Assembly (NCBI GenBank): GCA_021810565.1
Contig: JAJZIM010000002.1
Coordinates: forward strand, 18,429 to 82,428
DNA from: Bacillota bacterium
GTDB lineage: Bacteria; Bacillota; Sulfobacillia; JAJZIM01
Reading direction: 5' to 3'
DNA length: 64,000 nucleotides
The notes under the pieces: model-generated
Told to the model about the DNA's origin: nothing
The model's input: the letters and a program-made list of their open reading frames with translations, nothing else
The model's database searches: none
Program-made: the position numbers and the translations under genes
Part shown: one piece after another, positions 33,389-62,533 of the stretch
How the letters are laid out: each line of letters opens with the position of its first letter
Position numbering within the stretch: the first letter of the stretch is position 1

Positions 33389-34069
33389 TTAGAATCCCCA
33401 CTCCAACCCTTGCTCCCGCAGGCTCACGTACCGGTTCTCCCCGATCACCAGGTGGTCCAACACCTCGATCCCCAACAATCGCCCGGCCCTGCCCAGCCGA
33501 CGGGTCAGGTCCTTGTCCTCGGTACTGGGCGTGGGATCCCCGCTGGGGTGGTTGTGGGCCAGGATCACCGCCGCCGCGTTGCGCCGGATGGGTCCCTTGA
33601 AGATGTCCCGGGGATGCACCGGCACGGCGGCCAGACTCCCCACGCAGACCGTCTCCACCGCCAGCACCCGGTGCCGGGTGTCCAAGGCGATGGTCTGGAA
33701 ATGCTCCTGCTCCAGGTAGCGCATCCGCTCCATCAGCAGCCTGGCCGCATCGCCGGCGCCCCGGATCAGGGTGCGCTCCTCCCGCCACGCGGCTAGCCGA
33801 CGCCCCAGCTCCAAGGCCGCCAGCAGGCGCGCCACTTTGGCCGGTCCGAGCCCGCTCACCCGCAACAGTTCCGGCCCGGACAGGCTCGCCACGGCGCGGA
33901 GGCTGCCCCCGGACAAGAGGCGCTGGCCCAGTTCCACCGCCGTCGCCGTGCGGGTGCCGCTGCCGATCAGGATGCCCAACAGCTCGGCGTCGGAAAGCAC
34001 CCCCGCCCCCCCGGCCAGCAGCCGTTCCCGCGGTCGCTCGGCCGCCGGCAGGTCCTTCAGCTTGAGGTG
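33389..34069 (-). CDS. radC: RadC-like JAB-domain protein
   Basis: 226-aa tail of track ORF 33389..34579: (H)[17 protein letters not shown]...[14 protein letters not shown]...[28 protein letters not shown] (JAMM HNHPSG). There is no canonical ATG/GTG/TTG where homologs start (M..IKDLP). The nearest ATG is ~80 codons upstream inside maf. Start is uncertain. Confidence 0.7.
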
Positions 34070-34665
34070 GGCGCTGCGGTGGGCAGCACTTCCAGCCCTG
34101 CCGCGCGCAAAAGCCCCGCCAGCCGGAACAGCGGCAGCCCCACCACGTTGAAGAAGCAGCCCTCGATCCGCTCGACGAAGATGGACCCCAGCCCCTGGAC
34201 GGCGTAGGCCCCTGCCTTGTCCAGGGGTTCGCCGCTGTCCACATAGGCCGCGATCTCCCACGGCTCCATCGGGCGCATGTACACCCTCGTGACCTCGCTG
34301 GCCGTCAGGCATCTCCCCGTCTCCACCTCCTTCAGCGCTATACCCGTGTGCACCATATGGGAGCGTCCGGACAAGAGGGTGAGCATCCCTCGGGCCGCCG
34401 CGGCGTCCACCGGCTTGCCCAGAATGCGCCCCCCGACCGCCACCACGGTGTCCGCCCCCAGCACCACACCACCGGTGCGTCCGGCGGCCACCGCCTCCGC
34501 CTTGGCCCGGGCCAGCCGGCACACCGCCTGCTCCGCCGGCAACCCGGGCGGCACCTCCTCCGGCACCCCGCTTCGGCACACCTCGAAGGTCAGCCCCAGT
34601 TGGCGCAAGAGCTGAGCGCGCCGCGGCGAGGCCGAGGCCAGCACCAAGGCGACGGGCCTAGGCAC
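34057..34665 (-). CDS. maf: Maf-like nucleoside-triphosphate pyrophosphatase (septum formation protein Maf)
   Basis: MPRPVALVLASASPRRAQLLRQLGLTFEV...ADTVV...GKP...AGAYAVQG. Confidence 0.9.
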   Translation of the reverse strand: MPRPVALVLASASPRRAQLLRQLGLTFEVCRSGVPEEVPPGLPAEQAVCRLARAKAEAVAAGRTGGVVLGADTVVAVGGRILGKPVDAAAARGMLTLLSGRSHMVHTGIALKEVETGRCLTASEVTRVYMRPMEPWEIAAYVDSGEPLDKAGAYAVQGLGSIFVERIEGCFFNVVGLPLFRLAGLLRAAGLEVLPTAAPTSS

Positions 34666-34987
34666 GCCGCACCAGCAGCCACAAAGCCACCACCGCGGCG
34701 GCTATCCCGGCCAGGTTGACGTGCAGCCAGATGGACAGCCCCAGGATGTACAGGTTGAGCCCCGTCAGAGAGAAGCCGTAGGGCTTGGCCAGGAAGGGGG
34801 CATAGGGGGCCGCAAGGCTACCGATCACCGATCCGGCCAGGAGCGCCACGAACAGACTCAGGACGAACAGCCACCCGTTGATCGACCTTCCGCGCACCGC
34901 TTCGCCTCCCACACCCGGGCAATGCCTAGGGGAATTCGTCCCGAGCGGGTCAAAATCCTGTCTACCTGCCTCTGACGCGCTCCCCAC
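34658..34987 (-). CDS. small hydrophobic membrane protein (possibly DUF4321-like; start uncertain)
   Basis: 2-3 TM segments (...WLFVLSLFVALLAGSVIGSLAAPY...LNLYILGLSIWLHVNLAGIAAAVVALWLLV). The track ORF start overlaps the tnpB 3' end by 130 nt. An internal GTG (~34849) would give a 63-aa protein. Confidence 0.4.
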   Translation of the reverse strand: MGSASEAGRQDFDPLGTNSPRHCPGVGGEAVRGRSINGWLFVLSLFVALLAGSVIGSLAAPYAPFLAKPYGFSLTGLNLYILGLSIWLHVNLAGIAAAVVALWLLVRRA

Positions 34988-36672
34988 GGCTGAAGCCGGG
35001 GGGTTCTACCGGAGGACCCCATTACGCCTTTTCCGGGCTCTCCTGGCCCCGTGGTCCCATGCCTCAGGCCGGCAAGGCCAGGGGCACGGACCTCAGCATC
35101 ATGGCTTCCACGATTTCCGACCGTGGCTCCGGCTTTCGTCGCGACGGGCTCAGACCCGAAGCCCAGGAGTCGAGCCTCCTTGAGCCCCAGGGAGGCAGGA
35201 GTCCAGTTCCCGCCGACTCGCCCGTTGGTTTCGGCCTGCAGCCGCTCGAACGCCGCACGCAGGAGGTCGTCCCCACCCGGCCAGGCCTCTTGTGCTCGGC
35301 CCGCGTTCAGCAGCCATATCTGCCGGTCGCATGACAGCGCCATGGGTTCCACGAAGGACGCCAGGTAGGCGCTGTACAGGTCGCGCTGGGCCACCGCGCC
35401 GCAGGCCGGGCAGCGGTGCCAGCGAAGGGACCGGGGCTTTTTCTCCCGGTGTCCGCAGTGGCAAACCTGGGACAGGGCGGTGGTCCGCGTGGGGAAGGCT
35501 CGCACGGCTCCGCCGGCACTCTCAGCCTTGCGGGAAAGCCGGGCGAAGAACATCCCCGGAGCGCGGAAGCCCACCGATTTGCCGAAACGCTTCTGCCAGC
35601 CCCTAATCGACACGTCCTCGTGGAGGAAGACATCCCCGAGGGCGAGCACCCGGTTAACCAGACGCCCCTGCAATGATTTGCGGTGTGCCGCCAGGGTGCG
35701 ATGGGCATCTCCCAAAGCCGCCTGCGTCTTCTTCATCCCCAGGGACGTGCGCCATTTCTTCGGTCCCTTGCGGATGGTGCCGTTGGGGTGGTAGTTCCCG
35801 GGGTTGTTGGCCCGGCGCTGCCGGTCCAGCTTGCGGGAGAGCCGCCGGATCTCCAGGTGCTTCGGCATCAGTTCCCCGCAGAAGGGAGTGACGAGCACAT
35901 GGTCCTCTCCCACGGCGGCCAGGGCGGGGGGCCCCGCGTCCAGGCCCACGGTCCCCTTCCCCAGGGGATATTTGACCGAGCCGTCCGGGTTCAGCTTACG
36001 GTACGGCTCGCCCTCTAGGACCAGTTGGGCAGAAAAACGGTTGCGCATCCCCATCTTCCGGCGCACGATACGCACGTACTTCACCCGGCAGGACAGCCCA
36101 TGATTGACCACGGGATCATTCCGATCGATGACGGCGTCAAGCGCCAACCCCCTCCACTCCACGGCGCCGTCGCGCCAACGGATGCCGGCGTCGTTGCTCT
36201 TGCCCTCCACGGTGTCCATTTGATTCTTCCCCTTGAACCTGACGCGCCGGGCCAGGCCGAGGGTTACCCGCTGCTGGGCACCGAAGGCCCGGGTGGCCAG
36301 CTTCTGGGCGACGTGGACGTCCAGGTGTTCTCCCAGCCAACTGCGGCGTACCTGCACGGCGTATCTCTGCAGGCCGTAGTCGGAAAAGCCGTGGGCCTTT
36401 TTCGCCCGGGAAAATGCCTTGGCCCTTTCCTTTCGTTCCTCGTCGGTGCTGTGCGGCATGGCCGTAGCGGCCCGGTAGGCTTTGGACTGACGAACCAGTT
36501 CCCAGCGACGGCAGGCCTCGCCCAGGCAGGCATTGTACAACTGCCGCGCCGCCTCCAGGCCGGCGTTGAGCACCCGCTCGTCCACCGGGCTGGTCCGGAG
36601 CGGGACCTCGCACACGAAGGATGGAGTTTCAGGCCGACTTTTGGTCTTCAACGTACTGCTTGATGAAGGCAA
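34858..36672 (-). CDS. tnpB: TnpB-like RuvC nuclease (IS200/IS605 OrfB, IS1341-type; solo, no tnpA seen)
   Basis: TTG start. N-terminus ...FVCEVPLRTSPVDERVLNAGLEAARQLYNACLGEA... is the typical OrfB N-terminal region. The zinc ribbon plus RuvC-III is ...CHCGHREKKPRSLRWHRCPACGAVAQRDLYSAYLA... 604 aa, i.e. ~170 aa longer than usual at the C-terminus (Gly/Arg-rich). Confidence 0.75.
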   Translation of the reverse strand: MPSSSSTLKTKSRPETPSFVCEVPLRTSPVDERVLNAGLEAARQLYNACLGEACRRWELVRQSKAYRAATAMPHSTDEERKERAKAFSRAKKAHGFSDYGLQRYAVQVRRSWLGEHLDVHVAQKLATRAFGAQQRVTLGLARRVRFKGKNQMDTVEGKSNDAGIRWRDGAVEWRGLALDAVIDRNDPVVNHGLSCRVKYVRIVRRKMGMRNRFSAQLVLEGEPYRKLNPDGSVKYPLGKGTVGLDAGPPALAAVGEDHVLVTPFCGELMPKHLEIRRLSRKLDRQRRANNPGNYHPNGTIRKGPKKWRTSLGMKKTQAALGDAHRTLAAHRKSLQGRLVNRVLALGDVFLHEDVSIRGWQKRFGKSVGFRAPGMFFARLSRKAESAGGAVRAFPTRTTALSQVCHCGHREKKPRSLRWHRCPACGAVAQRDLYSAYLASFVEPMALSCDRQIWLLNAGRAQEAWPGGDDLLRAAFERLQAETNGRVGGNWTPASLGLKEARLLGFGSEPVATKAGATVGNRGSHDAEVRAPGLAGLRHGTTGPGEPGKGVMGSSGRTPRLQPWGARQRQVDRILTRSGRIPLGIARVWEAKRCAEGRSTGGCSS

Positions 36673-43819: not shown

Positions 43820-43885
43820 GTCATATGCTAGAACATTTGCGGTGTGCTTGTCAAGTGCCTTGATGCGATTCCTTCAAGGTATTTA
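43820..43885 (-). promoter_or_regulatory. putative sigmaA promoter of the hspR-dnaK operon plus HAIR-like inverted repeat
   Basis: Minus strand: TTGACA (plus 43849-43854) - 18 nt - TAGCAT (plus 43825-43830). IR CCTTGA-N10-TCAAGG at 43858-43879 (compare HAIR CTTGAGT-N7-ACTCAAG = CTTGA-N11-TCAAG). A palindrome CTTGTCAAG overlaps the -35. Confidence 0.45.
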
Positions 43886-43951: not shown

Positions 43952-43980
43952 TTGACATCCCCGTCCCGGCGCGCTATACT
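43952..43980 (+). promoter_or_regulatory. sigmaA-type promoter for tRNA-Ser
   Basis: TTGACA (43952-43957) - 17 nt - TATACT (43975-43980), 12 nt before the tRNA 5' end. Confidence 0.6.
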
Positions 43981-43992
43981 CGAGAGTGCTTC

Positions 43993-44085
43993 GGAGGGGT
44001 ACCCAAGCGGCCGAAGGGGCGGGTTTGCTAAACCTGTAGTAGGGTTTTGGCTCTAGCGAGGGTTCGAATCCCTCCCCCTCCGCCA
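43993..44085 (+). tRNA. tRNA-Ser (anticodon GCT), class II with long variable arm, encoded CCA
   Basis: GGAGGGGTACCCAAGCGGCCGAAGGGGCGGGTTTGCTAAACC...GGGTTCGAATCCCTCCCCCTCCGCCA. Acceptor stem GGAGGGG/CCCCTCC, anticodon loop TTGCTAA, T-arm GGTTCGAATCC. Confidence 0.9.
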
Positions 44086-44102
44086 TCCAAATCTGCGGAA
44101 GC

Positions 44103-44130
44103 CGACCAGCCGGTCGGTTTCTTTCATTGA
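44103..44130 (+). terminator. rho-independent terminator after tRNA-Ser
   Basis: CCGACCAGCCGGTCGG hairpin followed by TTTCTTTC. Confidence 0.6.
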
Positions 44131-44388
44131 GGATACGGTCCTCCTCGCCGCGCTCCCCGCGGCAGGGCTCGCCCAAAGCCCGCCAGCCGAGTCGTCGTTG
44201 TCCCTCTCGCGGGTGCTCGGCGGAAAGCTTCCCCGCCCGCAGGTTCCGCGGCCGTCAGCCGGCACCCGCCGGTGGACGGGAGGAGCGCCCCCTCGGCCTT
44301 TGAGCCGCCGCCGCAACCGCTCCCGGATTCCCGCCGGGCGCCCACCTCGGAGCATAAGCAGTCCCCCCGGTGATGCCGAGGGGAGCCG

Positions 44389-44880
44389 TCATCGCTCCGT
44401 TTGCGCCAGGGCCTCGTCCAGGAAGCGCCCAAAATCCGCCAACTCGGTTCGTACCAACGTCATCGTGTCATTCACCGTCAGCACCAGTCGTTCCATGTGC
44501 TCCCAGTTCAGGGGGCGTCGGTATATCCTGTACACCACGTGGCGGAAACTGCGCAACTCGTCAAGTTTGTCGTAGGTGGCCTCGGAGATGACCGCTGGCC
44601 GTTCCGGAGTCTTGGACGCGGCCAGCCGGAGCAAGCCCGTGTGCCAACTGGGACCCTGGGGCTTATACTCATCGAACACGCTCACGATGTGCTCCAACAC
44701 GTCCTCTACCGCCGTGTAGAAGCGCGCTATGTTGAGAGCCACCGCCAAGACCAGTTCTATCTGTGGATCGGCCGAAGCCACCCGTGCGCTCATCTCTTCG
44801 ATGGCCTGGTGCAGTTCCCCGGCAACTCTCAGGATGAAGTCCATTTCGGCTAGGAGTTCACGCAACTGTCCCTTGCTCAA
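44389..44880 (-). CDS. HEPN-type (HepT/NTase-substrate-binding-like) putative toxin, partner of the upstream MNT
   Basis: Track ORF 44389..45237 trimmed to a TTG start whose TTG overlaps the MNT TGA (cTTTGAgc). 163 aa, all-helical: (M)SKGQLRELLAEMDFILRVAGELHQAIEEM...DELRSFRHVVYRIY... The RxxxH motif is not a perfect Rx4-6H. Confidence 0.5.
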   Translation of the reverse strand: MSKGQLRELLAEMDFILRVAGELHQAIEEMSARVASADPQIELVLAVALNIARFYTAVEDVLEHIVSVFDEYKPQGPSWHTGLLRLAASKTPERPAVISEATYDKLDELRSFRHVVYRIYRRPLNWEHMERLVLTVNDTMTLVRTELADFGRFLDEALAQTER

Positions 44881-45278
44881 AGCAGCCGCACCCCCTGCCT
44901 TAGGAACCGTTGCAGCAACCGATCGTCCAACTCCTCCCAAGGGATGAGGTCCACGGCGAACTCGCCCTCGGTTAGGCGTTCCGCCACCGCTCCGGCGCGA
45001 TAATACGCGTCCGGGGACAACCCATGCACCAACAGGTCTATGTCCGTAGACGGATACACGGGGCTGTCCGGCCGCGCCAGGGAGCCCACCAGAAGCACTT
45101 GATCCACCGAGAAATCCGCCGCCAGGGAGGCGGCGATGGACCCGGCCACAGCTACGCCCCGCTCCCGCCGGGCCCGCATCCACCGCTCCCATTGCTTGAT
45201 CCGACGCGCGGCGTTTTCCACTTGCTCTTGGGTCCACATCGCGGCATCACCTGGCTTCATTATACCAGAGCGCGGCAT
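44877..45278 (-). CDS. minimal nucleotidyltransferase (MNT/MntA-like) putative antitoxin
   Basis: ...VAGSIAASLAADFSVDQVLLVGSLARPDSPVYPSTDIDLLVHGLSPDAY... (GS...D.D NTase fold motif), 133 aa. Confidence 0.65.
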   Translation of the reverse strand: MPRSGIMKPGDAAMWTQEQVENAARRIKQWERWMRARRERGVAVAGSIAASLAADFSVDQVLLVGSLARPDSPVYPSTDIDLLVHGLSPDAYYRAGAVAERLTEGEFAVDLIPWEELDDRLLQRFLRQGVRLL

Positions 45279-45304
45279 CGAGAGCCAGTTGGTCCCATGC
45301 TTTG

Positions 45305-45665
45305 GTCACCTCGCACCGCCGCAAGTCCCCGGTAGGGCAGACCGCTCCAAATCAGCCTCTAAGCGGCGAACGTCCGGATAGCCCGCCAAACCCCGGCGGG
45401 CCTGCTCCAACCTGACGGGCGAGGCATCGACGAAGTCCCCAAAAGCCGCTGGATACAGACGCAGCAACACCTCCCCCGTTACCCCGTCCCCGCAACCCGG
45501 ACCCAGGATCCGCTGCGGCGGACGCCCGAGTCGGAGCGCAGTTCCCGCACCACCTCCAGCCGCTCGCCGACGAGCGGCATGCCGCCGCGGAGGCGCTGAA
45601 AGGCCCGAACCGTCTCGGAGTTCCTCCAGCCGCTATGCGTCCGATCCGCCCCTCCAGGTTCCACG
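45305..45665 (-). pseudogene. frameshifted and truncated fragment of a class I SAM-dependent methyltransferase
   Basis: Frame 1 (track ORF 45479..45664): MPLVGERLEVVRELRSDSGVR. After a frameshift, frame 3 gives RILGPGCGDGVTGEVLLRLYPAAFGDFVDASPVRLEQARRGLAGYPDVRRLEADLERSALP*. Only ~120 aa remain. It resembles the N-terminus of the intact MTase at 61874..62533. Confidence 0.5.
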
Positions 45666-61416: not shown

Positions 61417-61896
61417 GTGATCACGCCCGAACTCTTGGAGCGCTGGGGAACCAGCCGCGGGGAACTTTCCTGGTTCGCCGCCCGTTTCGGGACGGCCACC
61501 GCTCTTTTGCCCCTGGCGGAGGCTTTGGCGTCCGAGGGCCGCTTCCATTGGCTGCGTCGGATATACCGGGGGTACCTGGACCAGTTGGAACCCGGACCGG
61601 CGGCGGACCTGGCGGTATTCGCCGCCTCGCTGGTGGTGGAAGACTCCTCCGGCGACCTGGAGCACGTCTCCCCCGCCGATCCCGGATACCACACCGCCGG
61701 CGCGGCCCTTTTCGCCCTGCAGGCCGCGGCTAGAGCCGAGACGGGGCAGGAGGGGCAGGTGGTGACCTGGTCCTTGACCGCCGCCGAGTTCGCCGCCGAC
61801 GCCGTGGCGGCCCAAGCCGACATGCGCGAGGTGGCGGCCTTCTGGCTGATGCTCTTCCGGCGCCTAAGCTTCCTCAGGCCGGCCCTGCCGCCTTGA
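61417..61896 (+). CDS. hypothetical protein
   Basis: Track ORF 61372..61896. Likelier start is GTG at ~61417 (RBS GGGAGG upstream): (M)ITPELLERWGTSRGELSWFAARFG... No family recognised. Confidence 0.4.
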   Translation: MITPELLERWGTSRGELSWFAARFGTATALLPLAEALASEGRFHWLRRIYRGYLDQLEPGPAADLAVFAASLVVEDSSGDLEHVSPADPGYHTAGAALFALQAAARAETGQEGQVVTWSLTAAEFAADAVAAQADMREVAAFWLMLFRRLSFLRPALPP

Positions 61897-62533
61897 CCCC
61901 CGTGACCACCGCCCAGCGGCCCACCGATCGCACCGCCACCTCCTGAAAGCCCGCCGCCGTGGCCTGCTCCCGCAGCTGGGCGGCACCGTACGGACCGGCC
62001 CCGTGGGCACCCCGCAGGGGCGGGGCCAGCCGGGTCAGGGCGTTCGTCTGGAAGTCGCTGACCAAGACCCTGCCGCCCGGGCGCAGCAGCCGGTGGGCCT
62101 CCGCCCACAACCCCCCGGGGTCGGACAGCTCGTGCAGCACATTGTTGGAGTAGACCAGGTCCGCCGCGCCGGAGGGAAGTCCGGTCTTGGTGACTGAGGA
62201 GCGCGTCAGCGTCAGGCGCTCGGCAAGGCCCCGCCGCCTAGCCCGCGCCGCCGCCTGGCGCAGCATCTCGGAAGACAGGTCAACCCCCAGCACCCGGCCC
62301 TGCGGCAAGCGCGCCGCCACCCGCAGGGCAAAGTATCCCGAACCCACCCCCAAGTCCACCGCCGTGACCGCCCCCGGACAGGCGGCCACCTCCCGCTCCA
62401 GGCAGGGCCAGGGATCCCCCAGGAGCCAGCGCTCCAAGCCGCGACGCAGGGGGCCCGCCAGGAACCGCCCCCCCAGCTTACCTTTCAAGCCCTCCCAGGT
62501 GGAACGCTCCACGCCCATCCCTCCCCAGGGCAA
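61874..62533 (-). CDS. class I SAM-dependent methyltransferase
   Basis: ...VTAVDLGVGSGYFALRVAARLPQGRVLGVDLSSEMLRQA...LVYSNNVLHELSDP...GGRVLVSD (motifs I, post-I, II, III). Confidence 0.8.
   Translation of the reverse strand: MPWGGMGVERSTWEGLKGKLGGRFLAGPLRRGLERWLLGDPWPCLEREVAACPGAVTAVDLGVGSGYFALRVAARLPQGRVLGVDLSSEMLRQAAARARRRGLAERLTLTRSSVTKTGLPSGAADLVYSNNVLHELSDPGGLWAEAHRLLRPGGRVLVSDFQTNALTRLAPPLRGAHGAGPYGAAQLREQATAAGFQEVAVRSVGRWAVVTGVKAAGPA

Follow-up and report, generated by a model that had tools for sequence, protein, structure and literature searches.

The segment described here lies in a window of 64,000 nucleotides from a Thermaerobacter-like bacterium, the whole stretch of DNA that was analysed. 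It carries, in order, hspR, tRNA-Ser(GCT), a HEPN gene, a minimal nucleotidyltransferase (MNT) gene, a methyltransferase fragment and doxX; folC is located nearby and housekeeping operons flank the segment on both sides. Between tRNA-Ser and doxX, the HEPN gene, the MNT gene and the methyltransferase fragment were the only supported ORFs. The features are as follows.

43952..43980, plus strand: sigma-70-type promoter of the tRNA-Ser gene, TTGACA-17 nt-TATACT (consensus scan, 11 of 12 matches)
43993..44085, plus strand: tRNA-Ser, anticodon GCT (ARAGORN; Rfam RF00005, 53.5 bits)
44097..44122, plus strand: hairpin resembling an intrinsic terminator of the tRNA gene, with a U-rich run after it (RNAfold)
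44123..44388: non-coding spacer from the tRNA terminator to the HEPN stop codon, 72% GC
44389..44880, minus strand: HEPN toxin candidate, 163 aa, TTG start, a member of Pfam HepT-like_2
44877..45239, minus strand: MNT antitoxin candidate, 120 aa, best start ATG 45239, in agreement with the NCBI, ENA and Logan gene calls
45247..45267, minus strand: candidate expression signals of the pair, read from the sequence
45306..45664, minus strand: 5′ fragment of a class I SAM-dependent methyltransferase pseudogene (three-frame translation)

Genes and signals between tRNA-Ser and doxX

An initial annotation of this DNA had assigned a promoter and a terminator of its own to tRNA-Ser(GCT), and both were recovered. 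The -10 element of the promoter ends 12 nt 5′ of the tRNA gene; in the region as a whole the consensus scan returned three promoter-like sites where 0.3 were expected. The terminator hairpin has the core stem CCGACC/GGUCGG, which runs into UUUCUUUC. Its folding energy is -18.1 kcal/mol (z -3.47) and none of 200 shuffled sequences was equally stable; a simple terminator scanner did not call it. The tRNA sequence is identical in a sister strain that is ~95% identical to the window, and the spacer at 44123-44388 differs there by scattered substitutions and two 5-nt indels. The 303 nt between the tRNA and the HEPN gene (44086-44388) were searched for the missing 3′ half of the methyltransferase gene or for any other gene, and no Pfam-supported ORF or Rfam family was found in them. 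A sub-threshold Rfam match antisense to the tRNA (Plastid-psbl-rps4) was dismissed as a tRNA artefact.

The catalytic signature of the MNT protein is intact. It reads G52-S53-x12-D66-x-D68, with a third acidic residue in VDL, so that the GS-x(n)-DxD and third acidic residue of the MNT fold are all present; G52, S53, D66 and D68 are invariant across the MNT alignment. On its own the protein stays under the Pfam and NCBIfam thresholds, scoring 15.3 bits against a cut-off of 60 with the equivalog model NF047752 (MntA). It is an MNT-fold relative, not an MntA equivalog.

The MNT stop codon and the TTG start of the HEPN gene share 4 nt, TTGA, as had been annotated for this minus-strand pair. The overlap was read directly from the sequence and the gene callers agree with it, giving the same TTG start on more than 20 contigs. 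HEPN is translationally coupled to MNT through the stop/start overlap. The nearest HEPN homologs are likewise found downstream of an MNT gene, with a GTGA overlap, and an NTGA overlap recurs in the closest homologous pairs. Six of the top 150 HEPN relatives are MNT-HEPN fusions of ~300 aa (P0062, P0088, P0117, P0120, P0140 and P0153), which supports a functional link between the two proteins. For expression of the pair, a candidate Shine-Dalgarno sequence, AGGTGA, is present at 45252-45247, 7 nt before the MNT ATG, and a candidate extended -10 element, TGGTATAAT, at 45267-45259. There is no good -35 element and the promoter scanner made no call in this region; the promoter is a guess from sequence.

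The HEPN protein matches PF20797 (HepT-like_2) at E=1.6e-30, with 105.9 bits against a gathering threshold of 27 and over profile positions 1-109 of 110. Its relatives in large databases bear the same Pfam label, and the closest of them is 42-43% identical when the near-identical copies of the same and the sister strain are set aside. Searches against Pfam PF01934 (DUF86/HepT) and the NCBIfam HepT models gave nothing at E<=1, PADLOC and NCBIfam returned no match for the protein, and its profile-to-sequence link to 5yep_B is weak (E=0.016). The earlier reading of the pair as MntA/HepT-like had been made to depend on a HEPN fold in the downstream protein. That fold is present in the toxin candidate, and the reading is further sustained by the PF20797 membership, by the catalytic motifs and by the way the two genes are conserved as a pair.

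A frameshifted and truncated class I SAM-methyltransferase fragment had also been annotated at this locus. Motif I (RILGPGCGDG), the frame break and the early stop agree with this, homology support being weak. The two frames join within about 45506-45523 and the premature stop is at 45306-45308; possible starts are GTG 45664, which overlaps the doxX stop, or ATG 45580. When corrected for frame, the 119-aa product matches Pfam Methyltransf_25 at E=6.8e-4 over profile positions 1-59 of 97, its 20.7 bits lying below the cut-off of 27, and weak BioC and Tam matches were seen. With motif I only, a broken frame and an early stop, it does not form a complete class I methyltransferase domain. The sister strain has the identical frameshift and stop. 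The fragment is a dead gene and stands outside the mechanism of the pair. The resemblance once proposed to the intact methyltransferase at 61874-62533 did not hold, as BLASTP found nothing (best E=1.8) and the two have only the general class I fold signature in common; a paralogous origin was therefore rejected. The fragment lies directly behind doxX on the same strand and resembles the final gene of an operon.

Origin of the segment and decay of the pair in a sister strain

The segment 44086-45665 had been viewed as a small islet that entered by site-specific integration at the tRNA-Ser 3′ end and brought in the toxin-antitoxin pair together with the methyltransferase fragment. We consider such an insertion unlikely. 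The segment does begin immediately 3′ of the tRNA gene, and toxin-antitoxin modules are typically mobile (PMC2701414). GC3 is low in HEPN (0.756), MNT (0.785) and the methyltransferase fragment (0.77) compared to the long ORFs of the window (0.869 +/- 0.048, minimum 0.77), values at the low edge of the window ORFs that by themselves make no outlier. The 11-mer TCCAAATCWGC occurs only twice in the 64 kb, at 44086, directly after the tRNA, and at 45346. However, this 11-mer lies outside the tRNA, its copy at 45346 is inside the methyltransferase reading frame, and in the sister strain both copies differ (TCCAAAAAATGC and TCCAGGTCAGC), for which reason it was rejected as an att boundary. As there are 14 such short repeat families in 2.2 kb, one beside the tRNA end is unremarkable. 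A search for a direct repeat of the tRNA 3′ end yielded only short two-copy repeats and none with tRNA sequence; the tRNA is not duplicated even in part. Between hspR and doxX there is neither an integrase or recombinase nor any other gene for mobility, the flanks are housekeeping operons, and the position of the methyltransferase fragment behind doxX is that of a last operon gene.

Every contig of the species, like the sister strain, moreover has the segment in place, and no relative without it was found. In the search for syntenic relatives, a FolC scan of genome contigs gave only distant taxa at <=50% identity and an HspR scan of metagenome contigs only unrelated MerR proteins. DoxX homologs at 51-62% identity (P0007, P0008, P0011, P0013) were all in unrelated neighbourhoods and were set aside as paralogs. 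The module was probably acquired horizontally; its integration at the tRNA is not demonstrable.

Every contig read for the species carries the pair in intact form (120 + 163 aa); these contigs come from several MAGs and samples. A TnpB remnant occupies the 5′ end of the operon in the sister strain, where it replaces the promoter and start region, exactly the segment of the candidate signals (45247-45267), and both the MNT and the HEPN copies there carry frameshifts. The remnant has no counterpart in the window. The locus thus offers a natural before-and-after pair, in which the module is intact in one lineage and decayed in a ~95% identical one after a TnpB element removed the operon 5′ end. 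The decay shows a safe route to the loss of a chromosomal toxin-antitoxin module, namely the silencing of both genes at once.

The HEPN active-site motif and comparison with known systems

The motif of the window HEPN reads F112-R113-H114-V-V-Y117-R118-I-Y120. The canonical RNase motif R-phi-x-x-x-H (Rx4-6H) is not present, since R113-H114-V-V-Y is followed by R118 at the position of the canonical catalytic His; the Tyr expected two residues past this position is retained as Y120. In a profile alignment to the Shewanella HepT (LRNIAVHDY), R113 aligns with the motif Arg, and Y120 with Y104, the Tyr that is AMPylated in that protein (PMC7641770, PMC13000451).

Residue counts for the family were taken from 149 representatives of HepT-like_2. 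R113, E59 and R94 are each conserved in 148 of them, H114 in 146 and Y120 in 141, and the window HEPN retains all the invariant or near-invariant positions (Y55, E59, W79, H80, R94, F112, R113, H114 and Y120). It departs from the family at position 117, with Tyr in place of the Arg found in 129 of 149. At position 118, the family itself varies: Asn in 65 of 149, His in 62 (42%) and Lys in 7. A basic residue (K/R) at 118 is common to the nearest intact relatives (P0018-P0021), with Lys at 40-43% identity, and is an old trait shared by a subclade. The initial annotation had singled out LRSFRHVVY as a deviation from the canonical Rx4-6HxY. Sequence and deviation are both real. It is no private oddity of this protein, however, as position 118 varies throughout the family and Lys or Arg is common to its nearest relatives. 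The site, R-H-x-x-x-R-x-Y instead of R-phi-x-x-x-H-x-Y, is non-canonical, and RNase activity by the canonical mechanism is not assured with Arg118 at a position where only 42% of the family has His.

The characterised type VII HepT/MntA systems resemble the pair in several respects. The two genes are tightly coupled on one strand, with MNT preceding HEPN. The MNT fold carries GS-x(10-12)-DxD; the HEPN protein has the four-helix fold, in which helix 3 ends with the motif Arg, and, two residues past the canonical His position, the Tyr that is the AMPylation acceptor in those systems. They are also the best structural matches of both predicted models of the window proteins. In contrast, identity to the window proteins is only 10-16% for HEPN and ~18-21% for MNT, and the window HEPN has Arg at the catalytic His site (R-H-V-V-Y-R-I-Y). 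Both predicted models also have additional N-terminal helices, an extra long one at residues 3-33 in HEPN and one of 40 residues in MNT. Minimal nucleotidyltransferase pairs of the HI0073/HI0074 and TTHA MNT (1WOT) type are also among the closest known systems. FhepTA of Shewanella is a fused MNT-HEPN protein (PMC13000451), and relatives of the window HEPN also occur fused behind an MNT domain, whereas in the window the two are separate genes. FhepTA further differs in having the canonical R-phi-xxx-H-x-Y and redox-sensitive cysteines, neither of which is found in the pair described here.

Proposed function of the MNT/HEPN pair

The pair at 44389-45239 (minus strand) is likely a functional chromosomal two-gene MNT/HEPN module of type VII (MntA/HepT-like). 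By analogy with the characterised systems of Shewanella, Aphanizomenon and Legionella, the HEPN protein would dimerise and act as a growth-arresting RNase, and the MNT protein would neutralise it by ATP-dependent addition of AMP units to Tyr120. This putative acceptor is the conserved Tyr that lies beside the R113/H114 site, two residues past the canonical His position. By the same analogy, the toxin would be freed once the antitoxin or the ATP supply fails. Given the non-canonical site, catalysis probably relies on the family-invariant R113-H114, with E59, R94, H80 and Y55 probably contributing.

Two other readings of the pair were weighed. It could be a two-subunit nucleotidyltransferase, in which HEPN is a substrate-binding or regulatory partner without catalysis or toxicity, as proposed for HI0073/HI0074 and for the C-terminal domain of kanamycin nucleotidyltransferase. 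The absence of the canonical HEPN His, both here and in much of the family, is in keeping with such a role, and so is the existence of MNT-HEPN fusions, as fused HEPN domains are mostly inactive according to Anantharaman et al. (PMC3710099). Later work showed that fused MNT-HEPN proteins are toxic and AMPylate themselves (PMC13000451), and a mere binding subunit would not need the near-invariant polar set around the motif (R113, H114, E59, R94, H80, Y55 and Y120). In the sister strain the two genes decayed together after loss of the 5′ end, a pattern expected of a dispensable toxin-antitoxin module. A non-toxic enzyme of two subunits is therefore quite improbable.

The other reading takes the pair to be inactive and decaying, a relic comparable to the methyltransferase pseudogene and the sister-strain copy. 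The ratio dN/dS between window and sister is 1.1 for MNT and 1.5 for HEPN, compared to 0.17 for folC and doxX; a value of ~1 from two copies cannot alone prove purifying selection on the window copy. R117Y and R118 diverge from the family consensus R-[NH], and the locus does hold a pseudogene, with an IS remnant in the sister strain. Against this, neither ORF is shortened on any contig of the species, start, Shine-Dalgarno sequence and 4-nt coupling are intact there, and every family-invariant residue is retained. The 22 differences between the two HEPN copies are also polarised. At family-preferred positions the atypical residue is in the sister copy in all but one case (Y55H, L83W, H114R, W126R), and the window HEPN holds the conserved states at these four. 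The basic residue at 118, being shared with the nearest intact relatives, is an old change. Decay of the window pair thus seems very unlikely, and a working toxin-antitoxin module is the preferred reading.

Among prokaryotic toxin-antitoxin systems, MNT/HEPN modules are considered the most abundant type, and thermophiles are particularly rich in them; a further copy therefore adds little by itself. Overall, the module is of a common type and an ordinary find, its one small oddity being the active-site motif of the toxin. Through this motif the locus points to HepT-like_2, a large and uncharacterised family of Pfam in which the pattern of conserved residues breaks the textbook Rx4-6H rule. At least 1556 representative clusters belong to the family, and no experimental characterisation of any member turned up when the literature was searched for PF20797/HepT-like. 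We tentatively raise the possibility that HepT-like_2, always partnered by MNT and with the window protein in its K/R118 subclade, represents HEPN toxins with a mechanism of their own. The site might be built on the invariant adjacent R113-H114, aided by E59, R94, H80 and Y55, with the His position free to be N, H, K or R. If so, RNA would be cleaved by a relocated catalytic His, or the toxin would act non-catalytically, with control still exerted via the conserved Tyr120.

The locus beside tRNA-Ser and its neighbours

The GC content of the window is 69%, and sequence identical to it was found in one JGI metagenome contig and in several MAGs labelled Thermaerobacter sp. The minus-strand gene order before the locus is valS-folC-doxX. 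Beyond it, tRNA-Ser on the plus strand is followed by the minus-strand genes hspR-dnaK-hsp20-grpE-dnaJ-clpB. The features of the locus are:

43952-43980, tRNA-Ser promoter TTGACA-17-TATACT
43993-44085, plus strand, tRNA-Ser(gct), the sole tRNA of the window
44097-44122, 11-bp hairpin leading into UUUCUUUC
44389-44880, minus strand, HEPN gene (candidate toxin)
44877-45239, minus strand, MNT gene (minimal nucleotidyltransferase, candidate antitoxin)
45306-45664, minus strand, methyltransferase (MTase) fragment, between doxX and the MNT gene

tRNA-Ser was detected by ARAGORN and also recognised by Rfam (53.5 bits). Its promoter matches the consensus at 11/12 positions, and a promoter scan of the 2.7-kb region returned 3 promoter-like sites against 0.3 expected. 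The hairpin has a dG of -18.1 kcal/mol (z -3.5) and none of 200 shuffles was as stable; a simple terminator scanner made no call in the tRNA-Ser region. ARAGORN, Rfam, the promoter and the hairpin fold thus agree with the initial annotation, in which the tRNA had its own promoter and terminator. A sub-threshold Rfam match to Plastid-psbl-rps4 antisense to the tRNA (44028-44082, minus strand; 35.1 bits, gathering score 68) is almost certainly spurious, caused by tRNA-like sequence in the model.

A promoter-like TTGACA-18-TAGCAT (43825-43854, minus strand) precedes hspR and points away from the tRNA-Ser promoter, and the operon from hspR to clpB is of the HspR-regulated and not the hrcA type. 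Just past clpB, a 604-aa ORF (34858-36672, minus strand) encodes a large TnpB/Cas12-like protein, in which Pfam recognises a Cas12f1-like TNB domain (E=1.5e-8). An adjoining ORF (33389-34579, minus strand) has UPF0758_N and RadC-like JAB domains (E=1.8e-43).

Three-frame translation of the MTase fragment gave a reading through WRNSETVRAFQRLRGGMPLVGERLEVVRELRSDSG in one frame and then from RILGPGCGDGVTGEV to RRLEADLERSALPGTCGGAR in another, with the frame shift at ~45506-45523 and translation ending at 45306-45308. Once joined, the 119 aa match Methyltransf_25 positions 1-59 of 97 below threshold (E=6.8e-4), and weak BioC and trans-aconitate MTase matches were also seen. Thin but coherent, this evidence fits the 5' portion of a class I SAM methyltransferase gene, frameshifted and truncated as proposed from the sequence. 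The likeness to the MTase at 61874-62533, claimed at the same time, was not detectable (BLASTP E=1.8).

Organisation and active-site motif of the MNT/HEPN pair

The MNT ORF has three possible ATG starts. The ATG at 45239, giving a 120-aa protein, is the start chosen on >20 contigs in the NCBI, ENA and Logan annotations, and has AGGTGA 7 nt upstream and an extended -10, TGGTATAAT. The HEPN ORF is started at an internal ATG (151 aa) in the JGI annotation. The TTG at 44880 (163 aa) is better supported, because the alignments of relatives begin at residue 2-4, residues 3-33 form a confident first helix in the model, this start and the MNT stop share the sequence TTGA, an overlap noted initially, and the equivalent overlap in the nearest homologous pairs is GTGA.

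Alone, the MNT protein scored below threshold (Polbeta E=0.002; NCBIfam MntA 15.3 bits, cut-off 60). It was aligned to the MNT genes upstream of the closest homologs of its partner and to the N-terminal half of each of six MNT-HEPN fusions. In this alignment G52, S53, D66 and D68 (GS-x12-DxD) are invariant and the third acidic motif is VDL. The resulting profile matched the T. thermophilus minimal nucleotidyltransferase 1WOT (1.8e-8), MntA (0.0099) and HI0073 (0.019), and PADLOC ties the protein to the candidate defence system PDC-S09 (3.6e-6). The fusions are single chains of ~290-320 aa among the top 150 HEPN relatives (P0062, P0088, P0117, P0120, P0140, P0153). Beyond the species, the closest homolog of the HEPN protein has as its partner a 197-aa antitoxin (L054:847-1440) in which a ribbon-helix-helix-like N-terminal segment (ITLRLPVSLKYQVQQIAE...) is fused to the MNT domain, whereas the window MNT has only a long N-terminal helix there.

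The HEPN protein matches Pfam PF20797 (HepT-like_2) over the whole domain (E=1.6e-30); DUF86/HepT, NCBIfam and PADLOC models gave no match. An exhaustive HMMER search found 1556 representative relatives at E<=1e-3 and just four at E<=1e-30, the best beyond its own species cluster at 42-43% identity. An AlphaFold model built with 60 relatives as input has a pLDDT of 97, and HepT chains top its Foldseek list, which upholds the HEPN fold assumed initially.

Conserved residues of the HEPN protein, with the number of HepT-like_2 representatives keeping each
Y55: 147/149
E59: 148/149
W79: 140/149
H80: 144/149
R94: 148/149
F112: 147/149
R113: 148/149
H114: 146/149
Y120: 141/149

The consensus over the 149 representatives is F-R-H-x-x-R-[N/H]-x-Y. 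In a profile alignment to Shewanella HepT this motif falls on LRNIAVHDY; therefore R113 is the motif Arg, 118 the canonical catalytic His position and Y120 the counterpart of Y104, the residue of HepT AMPylated by MntA (PMC7641770; PMC13000451). The window protein reads F-R-H-V-V-Y-R-I-Y and keeps every family-invariant residue. Position 117 is Tyr (Arg in 129/149) and position 118 is Arg (N in 65, H in 62 and K in 7 of 149), so that the departure from Rx4-6H first noticed in the sequence is real. Since the nearest relatives have HK, QK, RK and SK at 117-118, the basic residue at 118 marks a subclade and is no lesion. In HepT-like_2 as a whole the canonical His is not conserved and the His directly after the Arg is, giving an R-H pair in place of Rx4-6H. 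Among MNT-linked HEPN domains, Anantharaman et al. (PMC3710099) had already described cases with alternative histidines, or with no such motif, that are nevertheless toxic.

The pair thus has the MNT-then-HEPN order, translational coupling, both folds and an intact NTase catalytic signature, and its HEPN protein has a conserved polar cluster and acceptor Tyr. It adds a rather divergent new member to the known and very common MNT/HEPN toxin-antitoxin modules, within an existing Pfam family. Because the Rx4-6H histidine, one defining feature of canonical HepT, proved absent, the protein is filed under HepT-like_2 and not as a HepT ortholog. By analogy with characterised type VII systems, the pair would work like the HepT/MntA module: the HEPN dimer would act as a toxic RNase, which the MNT protein would block by oligo-AMPylating Y120 with ATP. 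The sole unusual aspect is the non-canonical active-site pattern of HepT-like_2, here with the canonical His position occupied by a basic residue. The pattern may mean that the catalytic His has been relocated or that the toxin is non-catalytic. A literature search found no experimental work on HepT-like_2.

Decay of the pair in a sister strain

The sister strain is represented by two contigs of one ENA sample (ERZ27237162), L034 and L044, which overlap by 10 nt and jointly span the locus at 94-96% identity. Its MTase fragment shares the frameshift and the stop with the window copy, and the pseudogene is therefore older than the strain split. In place of window positions 45227-45293, which contain the MNT start codon, SD and -10, the sister strain has 279 nt (L034:2929-2994 joined to L044:1-223) between the MTase fragment and MNT. 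This insert encodes an internally deleted TnpB, an RNA-guided endonuclease of IS200/IS605 type (48% identity to annotated TnpB genes, E=8e-8; weak NCBIfam IS200_TnpB match). The 604-aa protein past clpB is unrelated to it in sequence. Several sister-strain contigs end in this region, suggesting that a repeat disturbed the assembly.

Both sister genes are frameshifted, MNT by a 2-nt and HEPN by a 1-nt deletion, and the HEPN substitutions include Y55H, L83W, H114R and W126R. Window-sister dN/dS is 1.11 for MNT and 1.49 for HEPN; for folC and doxX it is 0.17. Where the family preference is clear, the typical residue is in the window copy and the atypical one in the sister copy, with the single exception of K90E. 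In our reading, the sister strain lost the 5' end of the operon to an IS element, which shut off toxin and antitoxin at once, and drift of both genes followed. Such a history also argues that the window copy represents the maintained, functional state.

Origin of the pair

The initial annotation had taken 44086-45665 for an islet inserted at tRNA-Ser. This was not borne out: between hspR and doxX there is no integrase or other mobility gene, and the search that it proposed for a direct repeat of the tRNA 3' end, run over 2.2 kb, returned no repeat that includes tRNA sequence. The 11-mer TCCAAATCWGC has just two copies in the whole window, one directly after tRNA-Ser and one at 45346 within the MTase frame. 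As an islet boundary it was set aside as chance, because 14 such short repeat families occur in the 2.2 kb and neither copy is conserved in the sister strain. GC3 is 0.756 in HEPN, 0.785 in MNT and 0.77 in the MTase fragment. For the long ORFs of the window the mean is 0.869 +/- 0.048 and the minimum 0.77; the three values sit at the low end of this distribution, which is compatible with foreign origin and not decisive. Horizontal acquisition of the pair is plausible.

In a comparison covering contigs of this species and the sister strain, all contigs examined that carry the exact HspR or MNT protein of the species have the intact pair in place. Within the species, polymorphisms of the module are confined to the HEPN gene (0 in MNT) and none is frame-breaking; one is a common A/G site (44758), and three further ones are in contig L047 (44412, 44470, 44653).
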